64,000 nucleotides of DNA from an uncultured bacterium (GTDB taxonomy: Bacteria > Deinococcota > Deinococci > Deinococcales > Trueperaceae), in assembly GCA_964398765.1 (NCBI GenBank), contig CAYNNL010000001.1, positions 2,214 to 66,213 of the forward strand, read 5' to 3'. The notes under the pieces were generated by a model, which saw only the letters and a program-made list of their open reading frames with translations, searched no databases and was not told the DNA's origin. The position numbers were made by a program, and so were the translations under genes. Below are positions 1,175 to 1,413 of this stretch, one piece after another. The stretch's first letter is position 1; each line of letters opens with the position of its first letter.

Positions 1175-1216
1175 GTCGCTTCTCCTAGGTGGAGCGCCGT
1201 GCCGCTTGCAGGGTGC

Positions 1217-1250
1217 ACAAAAGAAGGCGCCGCTCATGCTGCGCGGCGCC
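1217..1250 (-). terminator. intrinsic terminator inside the metG leader (also downstream of the DsbA-like gene)
   Basis: Minus strand reads GGCGCCGC-gcagcauga-GCGGCGCC followed by UUCUUUUGU. This is an 8-bp GC stem plus a U-rich tail, only ~40 nt upstream of the metG ATG. Confidence 0.6.
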
Positions 1251-1324
1251 CTGGCTCGACCGACCGGCGTGGTCAGCCGAAGACAGGGCTAGGACGCATC
1301 ATCCGCGGCACCATACTGGCGCGC

Positions 1325-1330
1325 AGTATA
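1325..1330 (-). promoter_or_regulatory. candidate -10 box (TATACT) for the metG leader transcript
   Basis: TATACT on the minus strand, 10 nt upstream of a mini-ORF ATG (1314). An AT-rich hexamer stands out in a ~70% GC background. Confidence 0.35.
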
Positions 1331-1413
1331 ACCCCGGCCGCCGCGGGCCGCGGCAGCCGTCGGCACGAGCGACCCGAGCCGGCGACGTCGGTGGCCCGAG
1401 CGACCCGTGCCGG

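Follow-up and report, generated by a model that had tools for sequence, protein, structure and literature searches.

A candidate methionine-sensing leader-peptide attenuator upstream of metG in an uncultured member of the Trueperaceae and its relatives in the Deinococcota

The window, meaning the whole 64,000-nucleotide (nt) stretch of DNA that was analysed, belongs to a metagenome-assembled genome (MAG) of the Trueperaceae (Deinococcota). At one edge it carries metG, the gene for methionyl-tRNA synthetase (MetRS). Upstream of metG lies a short leader with a promoter-proximal mini open reading frame (ORF), a hairpin around the stop codon of that ORF and an intrinsic terminator. This leader, described here as a candidate transcription attenuator, is on the minus strand, to which all leader coordinates refer. 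The features of the locus are as follows, in the order of transcription.

2136-1414, minus strand: DSBA-like gene, 5' of the leader (Pfam DSBA, E = 6.8e-39).
1330-1325, minus strand: -10 box TATACT, from reading of the sequence, without a recognisable -35 hexamer.
1314-1273, minus strand: leader mini-ORF of 13 codons plus TGA (ATG GTG CCG CGG ATG ATG CGT CCT AGC CCT GTC TTC GGC TGA).
1305-1312, minus strand: 5' segment GGUGCCGC, codons 1-4, complementary to the 3' arm of the terminator.
1302-1297, minus strand: codons 5 and 6, two adjacent Met codons (AUG AUG) with the proposed regulatory role.
1289-1284, minus strand: 5' strand of stem P1, GCCCUG, codons 9-11, pairing with 1253-1248.
1255-1282, minus strand: hairpin H, enclosed by P1, with the stop codon UGA in its 5' arm CGGCUGACC, from folds and covariation.
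1253-1248, minus strand: 3' strand of P1, CAGGGC, whose final GGC also opens the terminator 5' arm.
1250-1226, minus strand: intrinsic terminator hairpin, GGCGCCGC (1250-1243), a 9-nt loop and GCGGCGCC (1233-1226), 8 bp, -17.5 kcal/mol.
1225-1217, minus strand: U-tract UUCUUUUGU, directly after the terminator stem.
2-1187, minus strand: metG with its Shine-Dalgarno (SD) sequence, the predicted regulated gene, extending past the window edge.

The product of metG matches Pfam tRNA-synt_1g (E = 2.6e-103), and its open frame in the genome is 695 amino acids (aa) long. The metG SD AGGAGAA is located at 1187-1181 and the ATG at 1174. The ATG of the mini-ORF (1314-1312) lies 10 nt past the TATACT box. 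The arms of hairpin H are at 1279-1271, holding the TGA stop (1275-1273), and at 1265-1257. The initial annotation had described the -10 box, the mini-ORF and its Met codons, the stop codon within a hairpin, the GCCCUG/CAGGGC complementarity, the terminator and the metG SD and ATG, and each was found again at the position it had given. It had also stated that a promoter has no room between the terminator and metG; the interval from the U-tract to metG has no TAnnnT box. A generic promoter and terminator scanner reported nothing at the leader, because its criteria call for a -35 hexamer and a 3-8 nt loop, whereas the leader promoter has no -35 hexamer and the loop of its terminator measures 9 nt. 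The folding energy of the leader is -74.9 kcal/mol, compared with -64.6 +/- 4.4 kcal/mol for shuffled sequences (z = -2.4).

The distribution of the leader was followed in metG upstream regions from 40 relatives in the order, from 80 named Trueperaceae loci and from 80 further loci retrieved with a Deinococcus MetRS query, and by a pattern scan of Thermus. About 65 of the 77 Trueperaceae metG loci with enough upstream sequence carry it. It is also found ahead of metG in many named species of Deinococcus (example peptides MTARLMMRMPPGR, MTITLPQTVMMRMPPRP and MSSPFSMFNMMMRMSPAR), in Meiothermus and Calidithermus (MVGSFTRMMRMPRR and MNGFFARRMMEVPRR) and in Thermus composti and T. scotoductus (MKGMPRR). 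The Bacillota metG loci retrieved by the Deinococcus query carried no such leader. When a covariance model built from six leaders was run against whole genomes of the window's genus, exactly one locus per genome was found, always directly upstream of metG; the remaining matches were only the reverse strand of the same metG locus. A GC-rich stem followed by a T-rich tract is kept ahead of metG in relatives.

All leader-bearing relatives have a TAnnnT box 6-11 nt before the start codon (ATG or GTG) of the leader ORF, and most Trueperaceae promoters read CTGCTATACT. The spacing is 10 nt in the window and 6-7 nt in most other clades. A start codon 6-11 nt past such a box is placed as in leaderless or near-leaderless mRNAs, the dominant class in the transcriptome of Deinococcus deserti (PMC4007540). 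The mini-ORF of the window probably starts 0-4 nt from the 5' end of its transcript.

The leader is missing in some groups. A Trueperaceae subclade (L169, L177, L181, L182, L184, L185, L188, L194 and L209) retains the promoter CTGCTACGCT, whereas its ORF, hairpin and terminator are lost. In a group of Thermaceae-labelled MAGs and their relatives (L025, L303, L305, L307 and L314), metG itself appears to be leaderless, its ATG standing 6-8 nt after TAGAAT. Loss of the attenuator has thus happened at least twice. Two local elaborations were also seen. A same-genus relative (L005 / L151) has an extra GGCGCCGGUCGGCGCC hairpin without a U-tract before the normal terminator, apparently a terminator arm duplicated in place. 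Seven Deinococcus metG 5' untranslated regions (L231, L233, L238, L251-L253 and L282) have a second conserved segment between the leader terminator and the metG start (...GGTTGCCCGGCC..CTCCTCTCATCAGGGAG..CCGGGAAGGAAGGGAGA ATG), with an anti-SD-like CUCCUC opposite the SD region; this segment may add translational control.

The initial annotation had made its idea depend on conservation of the mini-ORF and its Met codons. Conservation was found in 126 unique leader ORFs from Trueperaceae, Deinococcus, Meiothermus, Calidithermus and Thermus, which contain 1-5 internal Met codons each, an internal Met codon being the detection criterion for counting an ORF as a leader; it did not extend to one Deinococcus-like metG leader (L236), whose promoter-proximal ORF has no Met codon. 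In one listing of unique leader ORFs, selected by that criterion, 84 of 84 have at least one internal Met codon. Leaders of Deinococcus and Meiothermus have 3-5. The ORFs are 7-28 codons long and change in length by multiples of three, so that start, Met codons and the stop embedded in the hairpin share one frame. Nearly all codons other than Met are variable, and neither the sequence nor the length of the peptide is conserved beyond Arg-Met and one Pro codon within P1. Conservation of the ORF with a start close to the promoter, a constant frame and a stop argues for translation of the mini-ORF.

The position of the Met codons is constrained as well. Nearly all Trueperaceae leaders have a Met codon 9 and/or 8 codons before the stop; the distance is 4-7 codons in Thermus, Meiothermus and some Deinococcus, and greater in three longer ORFs. 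Within the Trueperaceae the pair is most commonly MM. The second Met has been lost in several lineages (ML, MR, MT, MH, MQ) and the first in others (LM, TM, SM, PM, CM, RM). No Trueperaceae leader with hairpin and terminator and with neither Met codon was seen among ORFs detected by an internal Met codon. Loss of either Met codon and never of both is the pattern expected if selection keeps at least one of them.

A second codon-level signal stands next to the first. In the metG upstream regions, 123 copies of the hexamer CGAATG read in the sense direction and 8 in the antisense direction. Of 80 cases, 78 share the frame of the promoter-proximal start, and the spacing of tandem copies is 9 or 12 nt in all 17 instances. 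Arg codons immediately 5' of an internal leader AUG are CGA in 105 of 119 cases, compared with 39 of 221 elsewhere in the same leaders, and CGA makes up 3.5% of the Arg codons in coding-like ORFs of the window's genome. An in-frame CGA-AUG is present in 90 of the 126 unique leaders across the Deinococcota; the window has CGG (1305-1303). Many Deinococcus and Meiothermus leaders have two copies (CGA AUG AUG CGA AUG); L233, L241, L281 and L294 are among the carriers of CGA-AUG. CGA is probably read through I:A wobble, and inhibitory codon pairs are known in yeast. By analogy, a poorly decoded CGA in the P site could delay reading of the AUG after it and so make the response to Met-tRNA(Met) sharper. 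In the genes of the genome CGA-AUG is depleted (1 observed, 13.7 expected), but this was dropped as evidence, all NNA-AUG pairs being depleted (35 compared with 156 expected). ARAGORN found only 24 tRNA genes in the MAG and among them, besides one with anticodon CCG, no tRNA-Arg reading CGN; at 75% completeness, the MAG is uninformative on the decoding of CGA.

The same data bear on a translation-coupled attenuator that would not be specific for Met and would follow general ribosome availability or speed, with the Met codons incidental or kept for another purpose. The window has just one or two such codons to offer as a sensor, and slow decoding of the rare CGA right before AUG might itself be the signal in leaders other than that of the window. 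This reading is nevertheless unlikely, since a Met codon is present in every leader ORF counted (by the detection criterion given above) while nearly all other codons vary, since Deinococcus and Meiothermus leaders hold several of them, and since the element is located only ahead of metG.

The initial annotation had reported that no clean antiterminator could be derived by hand. This statement is superseded: the predicted antiterminator is P1 (GCCCUG/CAGGGC) together with hairpin H around the stop codon, overlapping the terminator 5' arm by 3 nt. A total of 58 Trueperaceae leaders were aligned to the covariance model, and covariation was scored over P1, H and the non-overlapping core of the terminator. 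Standard pairs are formed by 89.7% of the alignment cells (77.3 +/- 0.7% in shuffles), and 18 of the 22 pairs show a compensatory change (13.4 +/- 1.3 in shuffles). Cells in which both partners have changed number 167, compared with 52 +/- 7 in shuffles, none of 500 of which reached 167, and with 17-39 when the partners are slid by 1-3 columns. In the stop-codon columns of H, one column pairs as G-C in 44 leaders and as A-U in 12, and the other as A-U in 49 and G-C in 5. The stop thereby switches among UGA, UAG and UAA with compensation in the opposite arm of H, and a stop codon is retained. Within P1, relatives change U-A to C-G via U-G and CCCUG/CAGGG to CCUUG/CAAGG; some compensatory changes are also seen in the conserved terminator stem. 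A plain MAFFT alignment had placed the 3' arm of H one column off, so that RNAalifold found the terminator and nothing else; the covariance-model alignment was used instead. A leader from another family (L023) has a complete overlap of P1 and terminator, CGCGGGG versus GCGGGGCG. The elements themselves, their conservation and covariation and their exclusive link to metG are direct observations.

Known regulatory RNAs were searched for in Rfam. A permissive search (E <= 10) over 1000-1600 gave no T-box, SAM or other relevant family, and the whole window gave no match at the gathering score. Weak matches in 1000-1600 were set aside as chance, such as Ms_AS-8 inside the metG coding sequence (25 bits, cutoff 48). 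The check for a known riboswitch proposed in the initial annotation therefore leaves the attenuator idea in place. The same search weighs on a structured RNA that would have a protein or tRNA ligand, as in MetRS autoregulation or in a simple tRNA(Met) sensor, the ORF being a by-product of GC-rich sequence. The leader is indeed highly structured, the terminator loop of the window contains CAU, the anticodon of tRNA(Met), and ThrRS of Escherichia coli autoregulates through its leader RNA. Apart from the missing T-box or other Rfam match, however, such an RNA does not predict conservation of frame, in-frame CGAATG repeats, promoter-proximal starts or a stop codon within a covarying helix, and it is considered improbable. 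The CAU in the loop was rejected as a mimic for MetRS, as it is not conserved in relatives.

The behaviour of the switch was modelled by folding the leader with the ribosome footprint masked. These folds are an equilibrium thermodynamic model, in which masking of nt 1-24 mimics a ribosome waiting at Met codon 6. The minimum free energy (MFE) structure is then P1 plus H plus a 5-bp stub of the terminator that ends 3 nt short of the U-tract, at -39.7 kcal/mol, compared with -37.4 kcal/mol for the best structure with a complete terminator. The pairing probability of the last three terminator bases is 0.14 in the stalled state and 0.99 both with the ribosome at the stop codon and in naked RNA. A codon-by-codon scan of the A site places the switch from antiterminator to terminator in the window after codon 6 and before codon 7. 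Averaged over 58 thirteen-codon leaders the step falls there too, with about 0.6 for codons 2-6 compared with 0.92-0.99 for codons 7-14. Varying the leading edge from +9 to +15 nt keeps the switch between codons 5/6 and 7/8. A stall at Met codon 5 or 6 leaves the antiterminator intact in the model, and the terminator forms 1-2 codons later; the Met codons are therefore the last stall positions that preserve the antiterminator. In these folds, the placement of the Met codons is that of a classical attenuator.

Together, conservation, covariation and Met-codon placement, all of them comparative, favour what the initial annotation had inferred, an attenuator that senses the charging of Met-tRNA by way of the ribosome. 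The leader is very probably a ribosome-mediated leader-peptide transcription attenuator of metG, reporting the supply of Met-tRNA(Met) and hence the activity of MetRS. The start of transcription, ORF translation, termination and a Met-tRNA response are predicted, in the following form. Transcription would start at or a few nt before the AUG at 1314, and a ribosome would load on the near-leaderless 5' end and translate the 13-codon ORF while RNA polymerase transcribes the leader. With plentiful Met-tRNA the ribosome would reach the UGA within H and melt H and P1. The GGC that P1 and the terminator have in common would be freed, the 8-bp terminator hairpin would form before the U-tract and transcription would end ahead of metG. 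With scarce Met-tRNA the ribosome would wait with AUG 5 or 6 in the A site, and P1 and H would form beyond its leading edge. By holding the first 3 nt of the terminator 5' arm they would leave only the 5-bp stub, 3 nt short of the U-tract, and RNA polymerase would read through into metG.

The fate of an untranslated leader depends on its 5' end. The MFE structure of the whole leader of the window is one long hairpin, formed by codons 1-7 with the loop and 3' arm of the terminator and ending flush with the U-tract. Compared with shuffles of nt 4-15, the fold gains 2-3.7 standard deviations of stability in leaders of the window's genus. When all clades are taken together, 54 of 77 leaders show the 5' pairing, modestly above the approximately 32 expected by chance (nt 4-15 shuffled). 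In Thermus the pairing ends 3 nt before the U-tract. Pairing of the 5' end with the terminator 3' arm was rejected as a universal feature, being clearly stabilising only in the window's genus; the folds point to a genus-level feature with an uncertain role. In that genus an untranslated transcript would still present a helix before the U-tract, GGUGCCGC at the 5' end pairing with the terminator 3' arm, and naked transcripts would probably terminate too.

A terminated RNA of the window's genus would thus fold into a closed long hairpin with paired ends and should be stable. It could act in trans as a small RNA, or the 13-aa peptide could do so, or the terminator could simply be constitutive and partial and fix the level of metG. 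For trans products there is precedent in Sinorhizobium, where roles in trans of attenuator-derived RNAs and peptides are described (PMC6614838, PMC7298713). The peptide is, however, not conserved in sequence or length apart from Arg-Met and the Pro codon in P1, the pairing that closes the 5' and 3' ends is not significant outside one genus, and neither a trans-acting product nor a fixed terminator explains why the leader is strictly tied to metG or why its Met codons stand at the switch point. These alternatives are very unlikely.

Several points weigh against a Met-tRNA-sensing attenuator. Its support is comparative. The covariation was scored on an alignment fitted to the structure of the model, and many of its 58 sequences are close relatives. 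P1 and the terminator overlap in the window by just 3 nt, and the antiterminated state is preferred by only 2.3 kcal/mol; on both counts the regulatory range may be small. The caveat of the initial annotation that there are only two internal Met codons is true for the window, and two regulatory codons, or one in some relatives, are few for a classical attenuator. With its box-to-AUG spacing of 10 nt, the transcript may carry a leader of 2-4 nt, and loading of the ribosome is assumed. Finally, MetRS also charges the initiator tRNA, and a severe shortage of MetRS would cut translation of the leader. In the window's genus, reduced translation of the leader together with the predicted termination of naked RNA would oppose the proposed feedback.

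Taken further, the metG leader of the Deinococcota may depart from the trp design by combining a sensitised CGA-AUG pair, two tRNA inputs charged by MetRS and a substitute terminator arm; this extension is fairly unlikely. A leaderless ORF start also needs fMet-tRNA(fMet), so that the leader would integrate both tRNA species charged by MetRS. The folds of the window's genus suggest that the 5' end of the transcript replaces the terminator 5' arm, a topology that is not known from described attenuators.

Other features of the genome are recorded here for completeness. Divergent from the DSBA-like gene, the plus strand of the window (2210-3931) encodes a 573-aa protein. Pfam matches it only near the C-terminus, to a universal stress protein domain (residues 445-572); its first 440 residues are unassigned and include a KDGNHRVSVARQLG stretch resembling ParB/Srx-type motifs. 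The only other promoter-proximal mini-ORF with a terminator found in the genome (75% complete) is located on the minus strand of G000 contig C19, with its T-tract at about 5321 of the reverse-complemented contig. TATAGT is followed after 8 nt by the ORF MTVSRNGTTISWGLITSSWGRAG, and a hairpin and T-tract lie 33-54 nt before an acetolactate-synthase-like gene (MTGSEVVMKMLERQGVEVIFGHPGG...). From its sequence this element may be an attenuator for branched-chain amino acids.

The region of about 110 nt ahead of metG is better annotated as a cis-regulatory leader containing a small ORF than as empty intergenic sequence. Leader-peptide control of synthetases rests mostly on pheST of E. coli, and control of MetRS by a Met-codon leader peptide, described in none of the papers searched, is a gap there. 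The predicted design spans the phylum and includes the culturable and tractable Deinococcus, Thermus and Meiothermus, so that the prediction is directly testable. As MetRS charges both initiator and elongator tRNA, a Met-sensing leader that needs Met-tRNA to start poses a design puzzle. The CGA-AUG pair, if functional, would be a natural case of codon-pair tuning of a regulatory pause.

The leaders pheM-pheST, trpL, hisL and leuL of E. coli are the classical leader-peptide attenuators. The metG leader resembles pheST, trpL, hisL and leuL in its short ORF with cognate codons and in the predicted choice between terminator and antiterminator by ribosome position, and like pheST it would regulate the gene of the synthetase. 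It differs in its use of Met codons, of which only 1-2 would be regulatory in the window, and in an ORF predicted to start at or a few nt from the 5' end without an SD. It also lacks the 1:2 hairpin of the trp leader; in folds of leaders from the window's genus, the partner of the 5' end is the terminator 3' arm. T-box leaders (RF00230), the usual control of synthetases in Firmicutes, govern synthetase genes, as is proposed for the metG leader, by readthrough of a leader terminator on uncharged cognate tRNA. They differ in that the metG leader has no match to the model at E <= 10 and in that its proposed sensor is a translating ribosome, not direct binding of tRNA.

The closest parallel comes from the same phylum. 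De Groot 2014, which also summarises the mechanism of trp attenuation, predicted 14 leader peptides in Deinococcus deserti, including leaderless ones before synthetase genes; its main text names only cysS and trpEGD (PMC4007540). There, as is predicted for the metG leader, a 5'-terminal AUG opens a short peptide rich in the cognate residue before a synthetase gene (shown for cysS), and both are predicted transcription attenuators. Structure, covariation and distribution across the phylum, analysed here for metG, are not treated in that paper (PMC4007540). Full-text searches found no paper describing an attenuator of metG or one with a Met-codon leader peptide; the supplementary list of 14 in PMC4007540 was outside that search. 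The leaderless polycysteine short ORFs of mycobacteria, which act as cysteine-responsive attenuators, resemble the predicted metG system in their regulatory codons, in a response to the cognate amino acid and in control of downstream genes, and they differ in phylum, amino acid and regulated genes (bioRxiv 10.1101/834739). Set beside these systems, the sequence evidence supports the metG leader as a well-conserved and probable Met-sensing leader-peptide attenuator, predicted to be of the leaderless Deinococcus type.

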